This document shows positions 1 to 12,689 of a stretch of DNA of 64,000 nucleotides, one piece after another. Origin of the DNA: Acidobacteriota bacterium (lineage in GTDB: Bacteria; Acidobacteriota; Vicinamibacteria; Marinacidobacterales; SMYC01); assembly GCA_004356105.1 (NCBI GenBank), contig SMYC01000060.1:1194-65193 (forward strand). The letters run 5' to 3'. Within the stretch, counting starts at the first letter, position 1, and every line of letters starts with the position of its first letter. Position numbers and translations under genes: made by a program. Under the pieces are notes generated by a model, which ran no database searches, was not told the DNA's origin, and worked only from the letters and a program-made list of their open reading frames with translations.

Positions 1-447
1 CTCCGACATTATGCTCTCGGATGCCCAGCACGCGCGAGGGGATCCGATACTGCAGACCGACACGCGCTCGTCGAACAGCTCCGGTCTCGCCTTCCTCGTG
101 TCCGGGTTGGGCCGAACGCCGGGCTTGAACTCGACGTCCACGATATCGACGAGCGTCTGGGGTCGAATGGCATTGATGCCGCCCTTGAGGGCCATCATCG
201 CCCGCAGATCCCAAAGGCTCAGGTCTGCGCGGAGACTCTCGGAGCCTGGGTTCGAGCCGAGCAGCACGAGCACGTTCTCCTTGGCAACGAGTCCGGGGAG
301 GATGCGAGGAGCCTCGAAAAGAGGTTTCTCCGCGAGGCTTTCTCCGAGAGCAGCAGACGCCCTTCTCGTCGCGGTCGGTGGCGACAAACGTGAGTGGGCT
401 CTCATCACGCGAGCGAGAACGGCTGTGACCATCAATGGTTGCCGCAT
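1..447 (-). CDS. Hypothetical protein, N-terminal ~149 aa only (gene runs off the window start). Start codon is the complement of 445-447.
   Basis: The reverse frame has high GC3 and a globular-looking sequence (MRQPLMVTAVLARV...ENVLVLLGSNPGSESL...KGGINAIRPQTLVDIVDVEFKPG). The forward ORF 11-745 over the same bases is S/T/R-rich, typical of a shadow frame. It is not in the ORF track because no stop lies in the window. Confidence 0.45.
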   Translation of the reverse strand, partial: MRQPLMVTAVLARVMRAHSRLSPPTATRRASAALGESLAEKPLFEAPRILPGLVAKENVLVLLGSNPGSESLRADLSLWDLRAMMALKGGINAIRPQTLVDIVDVEFKPGVRPNPDTRKARPELFDERVSVCSIGSPRACWASESIMSE

Positions 448-745
448 GGCGAGTGGGCTTCGCCTTCTGAGGGACCGGGATGAAGTCCGCCTAGGCCTTG
501 GCCAGCCTTGGTTTTTCTCGACCGAGACGCTCGCCGTCGCGCCGCCGAGCGACGTCGCCCGAAAGTGCCCCCGGTGCAAGCGGGACATCAAAGCCGGCTC
601 GGAGGCGGTGCGTTGTCCAGGGTGCGACGTCTGGTACCACCAGTCGGACGAATGGCCGTGTTGGACCTACGCCGAGACGTGCGTCCTATGCGAGCAACCC
701 ACTCAGTTTGCCGCGGGATACCGTTTCAACCCGGATGGACTTTGA
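446..745 (+). CDS. Small zinc-ribbon / multi-Cys zinc-finger protein of about 99 aa.
   Basis: It is the C-terminal part of ORF 11-745. It has two CxxC knuckles (CPRC-x12-CPGC) followed by H-x6-C-x7-C-x2-C, and GC3 rises over the Cys-rich part. Its TGA stop overlaps the ATG of the E1 gene (TGATG at 743-747), which suggests translational coupling. The exact start is uncertain. Confidence 0.45.
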   Translation: MASGLRLLRDRDEVRLGLGQPWFFSTETLAVAPPSDVARKCPRCKRDIKAGSEAVRCPGCDVWYHQSDEWPCWTYAETCVLCEQPTQFAAGYRFNPDGL

Positions 746-1873
746 TGATTTCGATGTCGAGCCCCCCTGAATCCGGCAAGCACGTCGTGGTTGTGGGGTG
801 TGGGCACCATCGGCTCGCACGTCGCGGCGCACCTCGCCAGAACGCCGGCCGTCGTGCGCGTCACCCTCGTCGATCCGGATGTCTACGACGCGTCGAATTT
901 GCGGGGGCAGAGCATAGGCGCGGCGGACGTGGGACGAAAGAAAGTCCACGTCCAAGCTCGGCGCCTTCGCTCGATCGACCGCGGGCTCGCCGTCGCGACA
1001 TGGGACGAGGTCGTCGAGAGCATGCCGCGTGGCCAACTTCGGGCAGATGTCATCCTCGCATGCCTCGATTCGCGGCGGGCGCGGCAAAGCGTCAATGAGC
1101 TGGCATTCGTTCTCGGCGTGCCTTGGATCGACGCCGGCGTCTCCTCCGAAGCCCATCTGGCCAGAGTCGACGTTTACCATCCGGGCAAAAGGAACCCTTG
1201 TCTCGAATGCGCGTGGGACGATCGAGACTACGCCGCTCTCGAGCAGCTTTATCCATGCTTGGCGGGTGGCTTAGGCGGCGGCGAGCCCGCGCCCACGAAC
1301 GCGTCCTCGAGTCTCGGGGCTCTTGCGGCATCGCTTCAGATGATCGAATGCGAAAAGCTCATCTCGAGGAGCGCTCTCGCCGCTGACGGCGGTACGCAGG
1401 TTCTGATCGATGTGGGTCGGCACAAACATTACGTGACCCGTTTTCGTCGCAATCCTCGTTGCCGCTTGCCGTCTCACGAATCTTTGACGGTTGAGCCACT
1501 CTCGACAACGGCCCGGGATTTGACGCTTTCTGAGACCTTTGGGCTCGCGCGGCTCCGACGCGAAGCGTCCGAGGTCCACGTCGCCGGAAAATCCTTCATT
1601 CGCGGTTTCACATGCATGGGTTGCGCCCGCACGAGAGACGCTTTTCAGCTCGTCGTCGACGCCGTACGCCCACTTTGTCGGCTCTGTCGCCACCCGATGC
1701 GGGCCGCGGGACTGGACACCGTCGACCGCGTCGAGCTTCGCACCCTTCCGGCGAAGTGGCTCGGACGGAACCTGGCCTCGCTCGGCTTTCGTGCGGGCGA
1801 GATCGTGACGGTCGGCGACGCAAGGCAACAGCGGCACTTTGAGCTCGGAGGTACCCGCAATGACTCGAGGTAG
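745..1873 (+). CDS. E1-like ubiquitin-activating-family enzyme (ThiF/MoeB/HesA Rossmann fold) with a Cys-rich C-terminal extension. A +1 frameshift lies near 802-804.
   Basis: Reading from ATG 745 gives MISMSSPPESGKHVVVVGCG, and ORF 791-1873 continues with TIGSHVAAHLARTPAVVRVTLVDPDVYDASNLRGQ. Joined, this is a canonical E1 Gly-loop followed by the D-x-D...NL-RQ motif. The join requires deleting one G from the run at 802-804. There are CxxC pairs at CLEC and CMGC...CRLC. Confidence 0.75.
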
Positions 1874-2357
1874 AGACCCCATCTTTCGTAGCTTCCTCGA
1901 AAGGCAGTACGAGGACGGTAACGAATTCACGGAGACGAGCAAACGGGTCGAGCTCGTACCGCTTCATGGCTCGCCACCATCCCGCTATCTGGTGCGCTTC
2001 GATGCCAAAGGCCTCGTGCGCCACGGCGCCTCCGAACCGCAAGAAGCAACCTCCTTCACCATGGGCCTGTATTTTCACGACGGCTATTTGAGACGGACGA
2101 ATCCGGGCCGTGTTCTGACGTGGCTGAGCCCGGTCGAGGTCTTTCACCCGAATATCGCAGCGCCATTCATCTGCATCGGGCCGGTGGCTCCGGGAACCGG
2201 TCTCGTCGATCTGCTCTACCGTGTGTACGAGGTAATCACGTTTCACAACGTCTCGCCCCGCGAGGACGACGCGCTCAACCGCGCCGCCTGCGCGTGGGCG
2301 AGACAGAACCGCCGTCTTTTCCCCCTCGACCGCCGTCCGTTCAAGAGCCTCACATGA
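1860..2357 (+). CDS. E2-like ubiquitin-conjugating (UBC-fold) protein.
   Basis: It contains HPNIAAPFICIG, an HPN motif with a Cys 8 residues later as in eukaryotic E2 active sites (compare HPNINSNGSICL). A GGAGG Shine-Dalgarno lies 9 nt upstream of ATG 1860 (the ORF track starts at TTG 1839). It overlaps the E1 3' end by 14 nt, and its TGA overlaps the next ATG (ATGA). Confidence 0.65.
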   Translation: MTRGRDPIFRSFLERQYEDGNEFTETSKRVELVPLHGSPPSRYLVRFDAKGLVRHGASEPQEATSFTMGLYFHDGYLRRTNPGRVLTWLSPVEVFHPNIAAPFICIGPVAPGTGLVDLLYRVYEVITFHNVSPREDDALNRAACAWARQNRRLFPLDRRPFKSLT

Positions 2358-3244
2358 TGAAGGGCGCGTTCCGTAGGCTCGCTCGCGACGGCATCACCGT
2401 CGTCGAACGGCGTGACTGGCTCCACCTCCGGCGCCCGCTGAGTGCCGGGCGGGAACCGGTCTCTGACTGGCACCGGCTCGAGTGGAACCACCAGCTCGCG
2501 GGTGGCACGAAGCTCGCGCTCGCGAGCGACGGCAGGATCGAGCTTCGAAGCGAGATCCCAGTTTGCGACAAGGACCGTCTCTCCGAGCGCCTCGCCCGGA
2601 CGCGCCAAGGGTTCAAGCAGGGCGCCGCGCAACACGATGGAGAGTCTTCGCGCCCGCGCCTATCGACGACCGAACCTCTCGAGCCTCTCGAGCCTCTTGA
2701 TATTGCCCGACTCGAAGCGATGCTCGACGAGGGCGGCCGTGTTTTCCGACGCCGATCCGAAAGCGCACTCAGCGTCACGCTCCCGGGCGTCGTCGAGCGC
2801 CCCCTATGCCTCGAGTCGACGCCTCGATGGGCGGTTCGCGCCTCGCTCGATCTCGTCACGCTCGCGGACTGGTCCCCTGAGTCCCGAACCGCGTTCTGCC
2901 GTTTCCTCATGATGACGAACGGCACCCTTCGCCTGGCCCGCGCAAGCCTCGAGGGCGAACGAGCCCGGTTCGAGGTTTGCTACGACACCACGCCCACTCT
3001 GATCGATCTCGACCACGCCATCGTCGCACTAGAAGCGGCCTCTCGTTTCTACTACCGCGAAGCACGCGCTCTCAGCGAGCCTGTTTTGGCCAGCCGTTTC
3101 CTGGACTGGCTCGAAGGCCCTTCCGAGAGCTCACGAACGACCACTCACACCGAACACCTACAAACGCGAGCACGGCCACGTCGTCCGCTTGCTCCGCGTC
3201 ACCCTCTGGGGATGTCCCGGCCGCTGTTGAATCTGGTCGGGTAG
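2354..3244 (+). CDS. Hypothetical protein of 296 aa, co-operonic with E1/E2.
   Basis: This is the in-frame part of ORF 2120-3244 from ATGATG at 2354, ATGA-coupled to the E2 stop. It looks globular with acidic patches (EPLEPLEPLD) and has no JAB HxH...S..D motif and no terminal GG. Confidence 0.5.
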   Translation: MMKGAFRRLARDGITVVERRDWLHLRRPLSAGREPVSDWHRLEWNHQLAGGTKLALASDGRIELRSEIPVCDKDRLSERLARTRQGFKQGAAQHDGESSRPRLSTTEPLEPLEPLDIARLEAMLDEGGRVFRRRSESALSVTLPGVVERPLCLESTPRWAVRASLDLVTLADWSPESRTAFCRFLMMTNGTLRLARASLEGERARFEVCYDTTPTLIDLDHAIVALEAASRFYYREARALSEPVLASRFLDWLEGPSESSRTTTHTEHLQTRARPRRPLAPRHPLGMSRPLLNLVG

Positions 3245-3520
3245 CGGCGGCACCAGTGAATACTCTCACGCAGCAAACTCATCGCTGTCAAGAGATTTCT
3301 GTTTGCTTCTAAGGGCGTGAACAAGAGCTGTCTCTCATCATTATTAATCTGGACGGGCCACCGGTCGCAAAGGCCGTGTTCCGATACGGTCGAGATGGCG
3401 CTCAGCATGTGGAGTGCGGCCGATGACCCTGGTTGACAACACAAGGACATTGGCTAAATTGGTGAGAACGAACTCCCGCTGCCTTGTTCAGAATGCGAGC
3501 GACGAGAGTTGCCAGCGCTC

Positions 3521-3930
3521 TCAGGCCGCCTCGCGCCATTCGTACCGGTGGTGCGGTCCGCCCACTCGCGGCAGTGCAACGACTCTCGCCGTTGAGGATG
3601 GCCGAGGTGTGGCATCTCTCTCGTTCGGCGTATCCTTGTGGAGCGCCAAGTGACAGCGGTCCTCGTGATAGTAGCTGATGTAAGACCGCACGAGGCGAAT
3701 GAAATGACGCTCGCTAAGGACGACTACGTGTTCGAGGAGCTCTCGACGACAGCTGCCGATCCAGCGCTCGGCTGTCCCGTTCTGCCACGGGCTCCGATAA
3801 GAAATGCGAACAGGCTTTGTGCCCATGGCCCTTATAAACTCAACCACCGCAGGCTGAATATAGAGTCGCGGTCGAAGACCAGGTATCGCGGCGCGGTGTC
3901 GTACGGAAACGCGTCACGTAGTTGCTGCAT
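3521..3930 (-). mobile_element. IS481-family (rve/DDE integrase) transposase remnant, C-terminal ~135 aa, with an internal frameshift and stop. The N-terminal catalytic region is missing.
   Basis: ORF 3521-3847 reads SPWQNGTAERW...YYHEDRCHLALHKDTP...GGPHHRYEWREAA, typical of the rve C-terminus. The upstream piece MQQLRDAFPYDTAPRYLVFDRDSIFS is in another frame and ends at a TAA. Confidence 0.6.
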
Positions 3931-3943
3931 CACCCACGCCGGC

Positions 3944-4007
3944 GTCGGATGGAACGTGGCGTTGAAGTGCAAGATATCTTGTACTTCAACGCCACGTTGC
4001 ATCCGAC
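3944..4007. repeat. 64-bp near-perfect inverted repeat (palindrome) with 2 mismatches.
   Basis: The left arm gtcggatggaacgtggcgttgaagtgcaagat and the right arm atcttgtacttcaacgccacgttgcatccgac are reverse complements apart from 2 positions. It is centred on gat|atc at 3975/3976. Confidence 0.85.
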
Positions 4008-4234
4008 AAGAAGAACAGGTGTCCCAAGGTGAGAAGAGGCCCGAGAAGTTCGCTGCGGCACGGAATACATGAACTGGCCTTTCTCGTCTTCATGATCGAA
4101 TGCTGTGGTTCGTCTTGAACCCACATTACGGCTGCAAGAAGTTCACGAAAGAGAACGTGCGGTGGCACAAGCGCTGGACCCTTGGCGTCCCCATGGACTC
4201 TGTGGCCGCCGGAGCCCTCGCGATGTGCTCTTAG

Positions 4235-5059
4235 CTATTTCGTAAGCTCGCGGTGCACGCCTTCGATGTTCATGTCGAAGTGCTCGTCGTAGCGTGTCCA
4301 GTCCGTGTACTCCGAAAGCTCCACCGATTCTTGCATCTGCGCGAGTGTCTGACCTTTGTCGATGCCATCTTGAACGGCCGCAATCAGAGCCTTCATGTAT
4401 CCGATATATTCCCCGACATTTTCCTTCTTCCCCGTCGGTCCGTGCCCGGGCGCGAGAATCTCGAAGTCGATCGCGTCCATTTTCTCGAGGGCGGCGAGCC
4501 ACTCGTGTGGATCGGACCCGGACATGTTGCGCCATGGAACAACGCGAACGCCGACGGCATCCACCATGAACGCAACGCCGCGCTCGGGAACGTGGACGAT
4601 GATGTTGCTCTCCGTCTCGGACGGTCCGGGGAAGATCAAGCGAACTTCCAAATCGTCCAGATAGAGAGAGGTCTCTTCGGCAAAAGTGATGTGGGGCGGG
4701 AGGATGTCCCCTTGAATGTGATCAAGCACCCCTTGATGCGCGATGATCGTCACGTCGTCACCGAACGCAGCGCCGCCGGAGACGTGGTCGGCGTGATGGT
4801 GGCTGTAGACGAGGTACTTGATGGGCGCCTGACTTATCTTGCGGATTTCCTCTACGTAGTGCGGCGCCGCTTCCACCGATTGCGGATCGGTCGCAAGAAT
4901 GGCGCTGTCGGTGACAACGAAGAGCGAACGATGCGCGTTGTGGGTAAAGAGATAGACGTTCTCCGCTAGCTTCTCGACTTCGATCTTCGGTGTGTCTTGC
5001 ACGGCCAAAGCTGCGCCCGCGAGCATCGTCAAGAGAACCAGCATTATTGTACGCGGCAT
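4235..5059 (-). CDS. Secreted metallo-beta-lactamase-fold hydrolase (subclass B3-like).
   Basis: It has a signal peptide (MPRTIMLVLLTMLAGAALA) and the HHHADH zinc-binding motif. Downstream His/Asp residues are consistent with the MBL fold. Confidence 0.8.
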   Translation of the reverse strand: MPRTIMLVLLTMLAGAALAVQDTPKIEVEKLAENVYLFTHNAHRSLFVVTDSAILATDPQSVEAAPHYVEEIRKISQAPIKYLVYSHHHADHVSGGAAFGDDVTIIAHQGVLDHIQGDILPPHITFAEETSLYLDDLEVRLIFPGPSETESNIIVHVPERGVAFMVDAVGVRVVPWRNMSGSDPHEWLAALEKMDAIDFEILAPGHGPTGKKENVGEYIGYMKALIAAVQDGIDKGQTLAQMQESVELSEYTDWTRYDEHFDMNIEGVHRELTK

Positions 5060-9769: not shown

Positions 9770-10043
9770 TGTGGACTGCGCGCGTAATTTCGGCCCCTTC
9801 GAAGGCAAGACGTGGATCAACTGCTCCCACCAAGGCGCGCTGCCGCCGGTCGCGGTCGAAGCGGTCGAGGAAGCCATCCGCTGGAAGCAAGCCCCGTTCA
9901 ACTTGACCTCGGATCGTTTCACCGAGGTCCCCGCTGTGCTCCGACAAACGTTGGCACGGCTCATCGGAGCGGATCAGAAAGACATCGTGCTCGCGAACAG
10001 CGCCTCCTATGGACTGCACTTGCCAAACGATACGCCGAGATGA
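9770..10043 (+). pseudogene. Fragment of a class-V aminotransferase / cysteine-desulfurase-like gene (N-terminal ~90 aa only).
   Basis: The fragment FGPFEGKTWINCSHQGALPPVAVEAVEEAIRW...IVLANSASYGLHL resembles the N-terminus of the intact class-V aminotransferase at 61828-63033. It ends in a stop, and a short unrelated ORF follows. Confidence 0.4.
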
Positions 10044-10299
10044 AAATACGCGCGATGGCGAAGTTCCCCCTCGAGAACCCGAACCCAATCATGCGGGTCG
10101 GACCAAACGGCGCCATCGAGTTTGCGAACGAGTCGGCGCTTCGGCTTTTGAAGCGCCTCGACGCGCAATACGAGCTGCGCGTTCCCGCGTGTTTGAAGTT
10201 GAAGGGTTGGATGGTGGACACGATCGAGAAAAGAAGCATCCCTGAAGAACAGCTCGTCGGCCGAGTCCGCGAGCTCGTCAAAACCCAGACGTAAGACCT

Positions 10300-11226
10300 T
10301 TACTTTGGCGGGGGCACGACACCGGTCTGGCTCGTGATGAGGCCGTAATGCTCGATGCGCCGGTGTTTGTCGAAGTTGAAGACGTTCTCTTTGATGTCGC
10401 GCCCGACGTCGAGGTCGCAGTCATAGGCGATGAGCTCGTCCTCTTCCGTGATCGATTGCGCGACAATCTCCCCGGTGGGCGCCACGATAGCTGAGCCTCC
10501 AATAAGCCCGTAGCCGTCTTCCTTGCCCGCTTTGCCCGCGGCAACCACCCACGTGCCGTTTTGATAGGCGCCTGCCTGAAGCGACAAGAGGTGATGGAAC
10601 ATGCGCCGATGGACCGGCTCGCTGTGATAGATGTTGTCGGTCGGCGTGTTGTAACCGAGCACGACCATCTCGACGCCTTGAAGCCCCATCACACGGAACG
10701 TCTCCGGCCAGCGCCGGTCGTTGCAGATGCACATGCCGAGGATGCCGTCGAAGGCACGCCAAACGGGAAAGCCAAGATCGCCGACCTCGAAGTAGCGCTT
10801 CTCCAGGTGCTGGAAGGGCGCGTCCGGCCGGTGATCCGCGTGTCCCGGAAGATGGATCTTGCGATACTTCCCGAAGATCGAGCCATCCGTGTCAACGAGA
10901 ATCGCGGTGTTGAAGTGACGCGCGCCGTCGAGCTCCGCGTAGCCGAGATGAAAGCCGATACCGAGCCTTTTCGCTTCTTCGAAAAGAGGCGCCGTCTCCC
11001 GGCCCGGCATCTCTTTTTCGAAATAGGCGTCGACGTGTTCTTGGTTTTCCATGTAATAGCGCGGGAAGAACGTCGTGAGCGCGAGCTCGGGGAAGACGAC
11101 GAAGCCGCAACCCGAGCGATGGGCTTTACCAAGAAGAGCAATCAAGCGCTCGACGACCGAGCCGCGACTATCGGCAAGATGGATCGGCCCGAGCTGCGCG
11201 GCCGCGACTCGCAGTTGGCGCGCCAC
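10300..11226 (-). CDS. N-carbamoyl-D-amino-acid amidohydrolase (D-carbamoylase), nitrilase superfamily.
   Basis: Strong similarity to Agrobacterium D-carbamoylase is remembered from the family: VFPELALTTFFPR, HLEKRYFEPGDLGFPV, GMCICNDRRWPE, YNTPT. The start is GTG at 11226. Confidence 0.85.
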   Translation of the reverse strand: MARQLRVAAAQLGPIHLADSRGSVVERLIALLGKAHRSGCGFVVFPELALTTFFPRYYMENQEHVDAYFEKEMPGRETAPLFEEAKRLGIGFHLGYAELDGARHFNTAILVDTDGSIFGKYRKIHLPGHADHRPDAPFQHLEKRYFEVGDLGFPVWRAFDGILGMCICNDRRWPETFRVMGLQGVEMVVLGYNTPTDNIYHSEPVHRRMFHHLLSLQAGAYQNGTWVVAAGKAGKEDGYGLIGGSAIVAPTGEIVAQSITEEDELIAYDCDLDVGRDIKENVFNFDKHRRIEHYGLITSQTGVVPPPK

Positions 11227-12689
11227 TACCAGGCCTCACCAAAACCGTAGCGCGCCATGAGGCCCGCTTCGTGCGAGCCGCGCCCTAGGGGCTCAGCCGA
11301 GCTCGGCTTCTCCCGCGGGATGAAGAGACCACTGCCTTTTTCGGCTTGGAGCTCGCCCGCGTCCACGACAACGCGGCCCCGGCTGAGCACCGTCAACGGC
11401 CACCCCGTCACCTTGCGTCCTTCGTAGGGCGTGTACCCGACATTGTCATGAAGGTTCTCCCAAGCGATGGTGACCTCTTTCTGCCCGTCCCAGATGACGA
11501 GATCCGCGTCCGCACCAACGGAGATGCTGCCCTTGCGTGGAAACATTCCATAGAGCTTGGCCGCCCGCGTCGACGTGAGGTCGACAAATTGATGGAGGTC
11601 GATCCGCTTCTTCAAAACGCCTTCCGAGAACAGGAGCGGCATCCGTACTTCGAGGCCGGGCACGCCGTTCGCAATCTTGTTGAACGGAGCCTCCTCGCCT
11701 TGGGAAAGCTTCCCCGTCTCGTCGAAACGATAGGGCGCGTGGTCCGACGAGAAGACTTGAAAAGTGCCGTTGGCCAGACCGCGCCAGATGGCTTCTTGCG
11801 ACGCAACGTCTCGAGGCGGCGGGCTGCAACAACACATCGCACCCGCCATGTCCGGCTGGTCGAGGTCCTCCGCCGTGAGGAAGAGATATTGAGGACAAGT
11901 TTCGGCAAAGACTTTGAGCCCGCGCCGCTGCGCCCGCTGGATCGCCTCCATGCCGTCTTCGGCGGAAACGTGCACGATGAGGCACGGCGTGTCGAGAAAC
12001 TCTGCGAGCGAGATCGCGCGCGATGTGGCCTCCCCTTCCGCAAGGCGCGGATGGCTGACGGCATGAAACTTCGGCGCTCGCGCGCCGAGGTCGAGAAGCC
12101 GCTTCGTCACCCATCGGATGATGTCGTGATTCTCGGCGTGGATCATCGTGAGAGCGCCTTCGCGCCGCGCGAGGTGGAAGACGTCGAGCATCTGATAGTC
12201 GTCGAGCCGAAGTGCGTCATAGGTCATGTAGACCTTGAACGACGTATAACCGTTTCGGATGAGCTCGGGCAGCTCGTCCTGTAACACCGACTCGCTCGGG
12301 TCCGAGATGATGAGATGAAATCCGTAATCGATGACGGCTTTCTCTTTGGCCTTCATGTGATAGTCCGAAACGACGTCGCGCAGGGAGTCGCCTTTGTGCT
12401 GCGCCGCAAAGGACAGAATGGTGGTCGTGCCGCCATGCGCCGCGGAGACGGTCCCCGTGTAGAAATCGTCGGCGCACATGATGCCGGAGGAGGAGAGCTG
12501 CTCGATGTGGGTGTGGCTGTCGATGCCTCCGGGAAAGACGTAGTTCCCTTCCGCGTCGATCTCCCGCTCGCCCTTCGGGAGCTTTTTCCCGATCGCGGCA
12601 ATCGTGCCGCCTTTGATGCCGATATCGCAAAACACTTCTTCCGTCGCGGTAACGGCGTTGCCGTCGCGTATCACTAAGTCGAAATCCAT
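11226..12689 (-). CDS. D-hydantoinase / dihydropyrimidinase (cyclic amidohydrolase).
   Basis: The start MDFDLVIRDG...GGIDSHTH carries the metal-binding HxH, and the protein is 487 aa. The longer ORF to 13628 is a shadow of the opposite-strand transporter. Confidence 0.85.
   Translation of the reverse strand: MDFDLVIRDGNAVTATEEVFCDIGIKGGTIAAIGKKLPKGEREIDAEGNYVFPGGIDSHTHIEQLSSSGIMCADDFYTGTVSAAHGGTTTILSFAAQHKGDSLRDVVSDYHMKAKEKAVIDYGFHLIISDPSESVLQDELPELIRNGYTSFKVYMTYDALRLDDYQMLDVFHLARREGALTMIHAENHDIIRWVTKRLLDLGARAPKFHAVSHPRLAEGEATSRAISLAEFLDTPCLIVHVSAEDGMEAIQRAQRRGLKVFAETCPQYLFLTAEDLDQPDMAGAMCCCSPPPRDVASQEAIWRGLANGTFQVFSSDHAPYRFDETGKLSQGEEAPFNKIANGVPGLEVRMPLLFSEGVLKKRIDLHQFVDLTSTRAAKLYGMFPRKGSISVGADADLVIWDGQKEVTIAWENLHDNVGYTPYEGRKVTGWPLTVLSRGRVVVDAGELQAEKGSGLFIPREKPSSAEPLGRGSHEAGLMARYGFGEAW

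Follow-up and report, generated by a model that had tools for sequence, protein, structure and literature searches.

The E1 gene near the left end of the window (the whole 64-kb stretch of DNA that was analysed) very probably carries a recent, genuine pseudogenising frameshift within a decaying operon remnant, and would as such be an ordinary pseudogene of a known kind. This verdict rests on three lesions of the locus taken together, namely the frameshift itself, a deletion on the 5' side of the operon and a break on its 3' side; its main weakness is that the E1 displays no independent sign of relaxed constraint. The parts of the interrupted gene are as follows:

745-798, forward strand, frame 1: start of the E1 gene and strand beta-1 (MISMSSPPESGKHVVVVG)
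795-799, forward strand: single extra base in the E1 gene, either within the GGGG run at 795-798 or T 799
797-1873, forward strand, frame 2: remainder of the E1 gene, comprising the ThiF-type adenylation domain and a Cys-rich C-terminal domain, with the stop TAG at 1871-1873
1096-1098, forward strand: TGA, premature stop for ribosomes starting at ATG 745 (117-aa product, of which approximately 18 residues are native)

The original prediction that two overlapping frames each hold half of the E1 motif is borne out, with the bases and frames as quoted. From ATG 745, frame 1 reads MISMSSPPESGKHVVVVGCGHH… (…KHVVVVGCG). Frame 2 is open since 749 and contains …WGVGTIGSHVAAHLAR… on its way to TAG 1871-1873, corresponding to 360 codons counted from TTG 791. 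Deletion of one base yields a repaired E1 of 375 aa. A tblastn search of the window with this protein needs both frames, with frame 1 covering residues 1-20 (745-804) and frame 2 covering residues 18-375 (797-1870), and an identical two-frame pattern is obtained when the orthologue from locus L002 (see below) is used as query. The repaired protein matches the Pfam ThiF family (PF00899) at 6.2e-26 (91.4 bits, gathering cut-off 28.1) over residues 13-222, and the original identification of the gene as an E1 is right. As the match begins at residue 13, the N-terminal strand encoded in frame 1 forms part of the domain. The E1 start is coupled to the upstream RING gene, with ATG 745 overlapping the stop TGA 743-745 (TGATG).

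The beta-1 strand and GxGxxG motif of the repaired E1 align residue for residue and without gaps with the VLI(I/V)GLGGLG of E. coli ThiF and MoeB (1ZUD, 1JW9). In the window gene, the strand and the first Gly lie in frame 1 and everything after them in frame 2. As the element is thus split, the window gene is a descendant of the ThiF family that encodes no intact member of it. The Cys motifs (CxxC pairs) and further invariant positions are retained, the clade-invariant columns including C156, C159, C175, C243, C294, C297, C317 and C320 (P0002 numbering).

The closest intact orthologue is P0002 (locus L002, ENA assembly ERZ26167118), a protein of 381 aa with 88% amino acid identity, in which the motif GKHVVVVGVGAIGSH (VVVVGVGAIGS) is encoded in one frame by the codons GTC GTT GTT GGC GTG GGC GCC. 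A DNA alignment with L002 places the lone unpaired base of the window at 795. If a G from 795-798 or T 799 is taken out, window and orthologue differ at two bases over five aligned codons, both differences being synonymous. In contrast, removal of a G from 802-804, as had been proposed originally, leaves five mismatches and breaks the GTGGGC common to window and orthologue. The resulting GCGTIGS repair was rejected on these grounds of parsimony, the proposed site lying off by a few bases. Because the 795-799 repair is the more parsimonious and the orthologue keeps GTGGGC, the motif was ancestrally GVGTIGS, not GCGTIGS. All other E1 indels relative to L002 are multiples of three or locally compensated (12 nt; +2/-5/+3; 6 nt), and 795-799 is the sole frame-breaking indel.

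The strand-loop-helix unit of ThiF, MoeB and E1 enzymes forms the ATP site. An AF2 model of P0002 (pLDDT 86) shows beta-1 as KHVVVV (16-21), followed by the loop G22-V23-G24 and a first helix spanning 25-35 (AIGSH onward). Mapped onto this model, the break falls in the nucleotide-binding loop between beta-1 and the first helix, which agrees with the original placement of a +1 insertion within the Gly-rich loop. A fold search with the same model retrieves UBA5, UBA3, ThiF, MoeB and MccB at E values of ~1e-16. The E2-like protein encoded by the next gene has no match in Pfam, NCBIfam or PADLOC over its 165 aa. Its AF2 model (pLDDT 93) has eukaryotic UBC E2 enzymes as the best Foldseek PDB matches, and H96-P97-N98 as well as C105 are invariant in 39 homologues.

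We compared the site with orthologous loci at the DNA level, using L002, 13 loci of GTDB species representatives and 27 loci from JGI metagenomes; the GTDB set spans Acidobacteriota, Planctomycetota, Gemmatimonadota and Binatia. Among the 39 loci covering the N-terminus, the window alone needs two frames; the motif is read through in a single frame in P0002/L002 and all the others (38/38), a result independent of gene calling. At the protein level, 119 of the 120 best homologues have the hydrophobic strand and GxG(x)xxG in frame, the lone exception being the frameshifted allele itself. A GTDB genome scan and a second metagenome scan with the repaired protein retrieved relatives of at most 59% identity, which were used as outgroups. 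The uninterrupted orthologues support an ancestral gene with one continuous frame, a notion raised in the original prediction.

The intact L002 operon is tightly packed, with starts and stops overlapping by 1-14 nt and the E1 as third gene. It consists of:

gene 1: 118 aa, weak Trans_reg_C similarity
gene 2: 161 aa, putative Prok-RING_1 domain (23.9 bits, cut-off 29.1)
genes 3-5: E1, E2-like gene and a third gene of no known domain
gene 6: 96 aa in the Ubl position, ending …AGGLG (Gly-Gly near the C-terminus)
genes 7-8: Prok-JAB and AAA ATPase
genes 9-11: Pup-ligase-family gene, 61-aa Pup-like gene and a second Pup-ligase-family gene

The same gene order is seen in eight GTDB loci from four phyla, and both Ubl and JAB are found in L002, L004 and L010-L019. 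Compared with this arrangement, the window holds:

1-345, reverse strand: fragment of a divergent 358-aa gene, 94.8% DNA identity to L002 8344-8688
342-346, no strand: junction of a ~900-bp deletion, L002 8689-9588 being missing, with CTCC microhomology
344-745, forward strand: 5'-truncated RING gene, residues 26-161 of the 161-aa orthologue, stop TGA 743-745
1860-2357, forward strand: intact E2-like (UBC-fold) gene, 165 aa, overlapping the E1 stop by 14 nt
2354-3244, forward strand: 296-aa third gene without a known domain, in which read-through past the 3' breakpoint replaces the last codons
3160-3165, no strand: 3' breakpoint at which homology to the intact operon ends, 13 nt before the third-gene stop
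3521-4032, reverse strand: transposase debris made up of part of an rve_3 integrase core (3521-3847) and a duplicated piece in inverted orientation (~3944-4008)

Two blastn blocks against L002 meet at approximately 342-346 of the window. The ~900 bp deleted at this junction comprise the 118-aa gene and the intergenic region, as well as 25 codons from the start of the RING gene and ~70 codons of the divergent neighbour. The latter lacks its first ~70 codons owing to this deletion and continues beyond the left end of the window; a tblastn search with the L002 protein aligns its residues 70-187. The remaining RING protein is 87% identical to its L002 counterpart (tblastn) and matches Prok-RING_1 at 3.6e-6 with 27.3 bits, slightly below the 29.1 cut-off, the gene being 5'-truncated. 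At the other end, the third gene terminates as …HTEHLQTRARP… in the window versus …HTEHLTKEEA* in relatives. The nearby rve_3 fragment was identified by Pfam (4e-9) and the inverted duplication as a self-inverted 64-bp match. Both the 5' deletion and the 3' break recur in the three further assemblies with this allele (L001, L005 and L006). A closer relative, L003/L004, has 97% DNA identity over window 2833-3164 and the opposite loss: of the third gene it retains just the 3' end, whereas Ubl, JAB and the genes after them are kept.

No homologues of the Ubl, JAB, AAA or Pup-ligase genes were detected by tblastn in the whole 64-kb window. Another Ubl/JAB set could lie elsewhere in the genome, beyond the window. 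A promoter and terminator scan of positions 1-4300 yielded no promoter-like site before 3433, with counts at the level expected by chance.

We propose the following course of events. One base was inserted in this uncultured Acidobacteria lineage, most likely by replication slippage converting G3 to G4 at 795-798. The insertion lies within the GxGxxG ATP-binding loop, between beta-1 and the first helix of the adenylation domain. Translation from ATG 745 would now stop at 1096-1098 after 18 native residues, leaving the remaining 357-360 codons without a proper start, and E1 activity would presumably be lost. The locus as a whole is probably non-functional: the ~900-bp deletion removed the operon's first gene and upstream region along with the beginning of the RING gene, and the break beside the transposase fragments removed the genes for the Ubl substrate and the JAB peptidase and all that follow them. 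Of the explanations put forward in the original prediction, pseudogenisation is the one supported by the data, as the lesion is present in several assemblies, orthologues are uninterrupted and two further lesions affect the same locus.

It could be argued that the downstream ORF is translated alone, from TTG 791, GTG 800 or CTG 767, giving a truncated E1 with residual or altered function. The 357-368-codon ORF is indeed still open and undegraded, and gene callers do call it. However, three gene callers choose three different starts (CTG 767, GTG 800 and ATG 1022). The sole G-rich stretch lies 1 nt before GTG 800, and TTG 791 directly follows GTGG with no spacer; neither spacing is fit for a Shine-Dalgarno interaction. 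Nor can termination-reinitiation feed starts at 767-800, since the frame-1 stop is located 300 nt downstream of them. A product initiated at GTG 800 or TTG 791 would be missing strand beta-1 of the Rossmann-like core as well as the initial Gly of GxGxxG, and the gene for the Ubl substrate is absent from the locus. Reinitiation at TTG 791 or GTG 800, which the original prediction had offered as one option, thus finds no usable Shine-Dalgarno spacing, a frame-1 stop in the wrong place and a product without its first strand, and we consider independent translation of the downstream ORF very improbable.

A homopolymer indel error in sequencing or assembly, with the true gene being intact, was likewise suggested originally. 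The extra base does fall within or beside a G4 run, the window derives from a metagenome-assembled genome, and L002 has a +4 change in the C-run of another gene, illustrating that such errors or changes occur in these data. Illumina 150-bp paired-end reads, however, rarely mis-call a 4-base run. An identical 60-mer around the site is found in three other assemblies built with different assemblers, although all four records may stem from a single trench population sampled in related ways. The first (L001, Logan SRR6057749, Illumina) is 100% identical over 3,263 bp (window 1-3263); the second (L005, a MEGAHIT k141 contig of ENA ERZ27251149) and third (L006, a contig of JGI 3300009030) have 99.97% and 99.94% identity, respectively, over 12.3 kb. 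L005 and L006 deviate from the window by 3 and 6 SNPs plus an indel in 12.3 kb, outside the locus, and also differ from each other, and therefore represent separate consensus sequences rather than copies of one. At least one of the three assemblies was built from Illumina 150-bp paired-end reads, SRR6057749 being listed among oceanic-trench metagenomes sequenced in this manner (PMC11136905).

Database records point in the same direction. GenBank TDI46313.1 ('MAG: hypothetical protein E2P02_05110 [Acidobacteria bacterium]') is a 368-aa protein that begins at the frame-2 codon 767-769, which implies that the NCBI MAG would carry the same frame break. A 357-aa form starting at GTG 800 is on record from the Logan SRR6057749 assembly and from JGI 3300009030, and a 283-aa form starting at an internal ATG from ENA ERZ27251149. 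An in-frame 375-aa E1 allele, in either version, was not found among ~15 billion proteins. A pattern scan of JGI metagenome contigs, permitting GGG or GGGN at the site, gave 0 hits; as it missed even the known JGI contig, it carries no weight on whether an in-frame allele exists. Judging from the assembly consensus sequences, it is very unlikely that different assemblers working on short reads would repeat an indel error at a 4-base run, and the two large lesions of the same locus cannot be base-calling errors. An artefact concealing an intact gene is, hence, very improbable.

Programmed or tolerated +1 frameshifting at GGG-U would restore low-level full-length E1 (VVVVGVGTIGS). Slippage of the P-site Gly-tRNA from GGG 796-798 to GGU 797-799 would rebuild the ancestral protein exactly, and the next frame-1 codon, UGU, is rare in the window (1.5 per 1000). 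Set against this, the A site holds UGU and not a stop codon. UGU and UGC are read by the same tRNA. Folding of the downstream RNA is not stronger than that of shuffled controls (z = +0.7), and no upstream Shine-Dalgarno-like element with suitable spacing can be told apart from the G run. The interruption is not conserved, which argues against programmed recoding: the frameshift occurs in none of the 38 other loci and none of the 119 other best homologues. In addition, the operon lacks its first gene, the upstream region and the Ubl and JAB genes. We therefore regard recoding as extremely improbable, and no better odds attach to the E1 being alive through low-level +1 slippage as part of a RING'-E1-E2-gene3 module that uses a Ubl encoded elsewhere. 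Were the latter true, the locus would be a recoding-throttled ubiquitin-type ligase module, and recoding would be expected to yield a protein peptide spanning VVVVGVGTIGSH / HVVVVGVGTIGSH.

Known contingency tracts are, to our knowledge, longer than 4 bases. A phase-variable G run that toggles E1 expression among members of the population is exceedingly improbable, for although a short G run does lie at the 5' end of a gene in a mobile, conflict-type operon class (PMC3417536), it comprises only 4 bases, has the same length in the window and three other assemblies, and has no in-frame variant on record.

Returning to the pseudogene reading, the age of the lesion can be considered. The E1 ORF is otherwise undamaged, with no further stops. 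At the family columns conserved at 90% or more, the window E1 deviates in 10/102 compared with 12/102 for the intact orthologue, and a relative-rate count with 118 outgroup sequences assigns 4 informative changes to the window branch versus 5 to the orthologue branch. Pairwise dN/dS values against L002 are 0.28 for the E1, 0.22 for the RING gene and 0.26 for the E2. These rates and ratios neither support nor contradict inactivation, and suggest that any inactivation would be recent. As the E1 carries no independent sign of relaxed selection, its inactivation is either recent or not proven by decay. The frameshift is thus probably recent relative to the ~12% protein divergence from the orthologue. 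Counting against the pseudogene verdict, both the E2 and the third gene persist intact.

Prokaryotic ubiquitin-type conjugation operons were reportedly described by Burroughs, Iyer and Aravind in 2011. A later paper (PMC3417536) summarises this class with Burroughs et al. 2011 as its source, which PMC11354881 also cites: the operons are mobile, occur in prokaryotes and combine E1 and E2 with a JAB peptidase and in some cases an E3. The archaeal Caldiarchaeum Ub/E1/E2/RING operon is a characterised example (PMC3082918, PMC5654768). The intact relatives have the gene set of this class, with a candidate Prok-RING_1 protein, a ThiF-type E1, a UBC-fold E2 (HPN + Cys), a ~96-aa Gly-Gly protein in the Ubl position and Prok-JAB, and their patchy distribution over several phyla fits the mobility reported for it (PMC3417536). 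The window, in contrast, has a truncated RING gene, a frameshifted E1, an E2 and the third gene, with no Ubl or JAB. The operon of the relatives goes beyond the known class by also containing an AAA ATPase, two Pup-ligase-family genes and a 61-aa Pup-like gene; we found no description of this combination of ubiquitin-type and Pup-type genes in the accessible literature.

Similarity to ThiF and MoeB (1ZUD, 1JW9) extends to the Rossmann-like adenylation domain with its strand and GxGxxG loop, and to a CxxC motif. Unlike these enzymes, the window E1 carries an additional Cys-rich domain of ~130 aa at its C-terminus and is situated in an E2/RING context, not a cofactor operon; all its NCBIfam ThiF and MoeB equivalog scores are far under the cut-offs (83 vs 275 bits). 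A related E1 adenylation domain is shared with the bacterial defence E1-E2 enzymes of the CBASS Cap2, Bil and Bub operons (PMC10557695, PMC11601596), and PADLOC E1-E2 (Cap2-type) models match residues ~10-120 of the E1 at up to 7e-16. However, it is the nucleotide-binding part alone that matches; the E1 and E2 are separate genes, and there are no CD-NTase or Bil/Bub partners. The window E2, RING protein and third gene have no PADLOC model match. As in ordinary short-homopolymer frameshift pseudogenes, a 1-base insertion at a G run leads to an early stop and is absent in orthologues, with other lesions and IS debris nearby; nothing sets the window E1 apart from these.

Taken alone, the finding matters little, as it adds another frameshift pseudogene, lying in what is left of an operon in an uncultured deep-sea Acidobacteria bacterium. 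The gene should be annotated as a pseudogene, instead of the 368-aa hypothetical protein of GenBank TDI46313.1 or the 357-aa and 283-aa versions produced by other pipelines, and MAG surveys that tally ubiquitin-type systems of bacteria should not count the locus as functional. Of greater interest as a by-product is the intact, widespread 11-gene operon of the relatives, which joins ubiquitin-type and Pup-type genes and deserves its own look.

In its intact form, the window locus is a conserved, roughly 11-gene operon, present in L002 (the ENA locus carrying the closest intact E1 orthologue), in orthologous loci of GTDB genomes and, in part, in L004, an ENA contig of a closer relative.

Intact operon, locations and gene content
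L002 9160-18655; also L010, L012-L015, L018 and L019 (GTDB genomes); L004 10001-16593
Genes 1-5, in order: 118-aa gene; Prok-RING protein; E1; E2; gene of unknown function
Genes 6-7: 96-aa protein at the Ubl position, ending …AGGLG; Prok-JAB
Gene 8: AAA ATPase with a proteasomal-ATPase OB domain
Genes 9-11: Pup-ligase-family gene; 61-aa Pup-like gene (…FLRANRQQDGQ); second Pup-ligase-family gene

Acidobacteriota, Planctomycetota, Gemmatimonadota and Binatia share an identical gene order, and the L002 genes overlap one another. No description of ubiquitin-type and pupylation-type sets within a single operon was found in the literature searched, the scope of which did not extend to Burroughs et al. 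2011. The otherwise intact L002 locus has a frame break of its own early in the gene of unknown function that follows E2, called the third gene here (11665-11680, corresponding to window ~2397), where a C-run carries four extra C (ACCCCCCG, compared to ACCG in the window). As a consequence, the third-gene call in L002 starts 75 codons late. Either a homopolymer error of long-read sequencing or a genuine lesion could account for this change.

The E2-like protein (window 1860-2357) has at least 229 homologues, every one of which is annotated as hypothetical, and the family is not represented by a model in Pfam, NCBIfam or PADLOC. An HPN…C motif is invariant throughout the family, and the predicted fold of the protein is clearly that of UBC/E2.

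Three annotation pipelines assign three different starts to the broken E1, and the records of all three are devoid of a pseudogene flag.

Assigned starts of the broken E1
GenBank: codon 767-769, giving a 368-aa protein
Logan and JGI: GTG 800
ENA: ATG 1022

Upstream, a 900-bp deletion has fused two head-to-head genes in the window. The deletion creates two chimeric ORFs, each of which continues past the fusion point into the other gene's antisense strand; they are called in the Logan contig L001 as a 244-aa ORF (plus strand) and a 366-aa ORF (minus strand).

Chimeric ORFs
11-745, plus strand
1-~446, minus strand

The region at window 3260-4235 is non-coding and rearranged. The majority of inter-assembly SNPs are concentrated at 3834-3990. 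Window position 3263 is where the Logan contig stops.

Features of the rearranged region
3521-3847, minus strand: rve_3 integrase-core fragment
~3944-4008: short inverted duplication, the same peptide being encoded on both strands

At the opposite flank, the three other assemblies of this locus (L001, L005 from ENA and L006 from JGI) end 600-710 bp beyond the left edge of the window, just past the 3' end of a truncated 358-aa gene. That all three stop within ~110 bp of one another suggests that the left side of the remnant is bordered by a repeat or a further mobile element.

Breakage of the operon is also seen in the closer relative represented by the ENA contigs L003 and L004, which share 97% DNA identity with the window over 333 bp.

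Matching stretch
L003/L004 ~10021-10353: corresponds to window 2833-3164

These contigs lack RING, E1 and E2. Of the third gene they keep no more than the 3' end, together with the Ubl, JAB, AAA and Pup-ligase genes. Their gene loss is the mirror image of that in the window, and hence the operon is breaking differently among closely related lineages.
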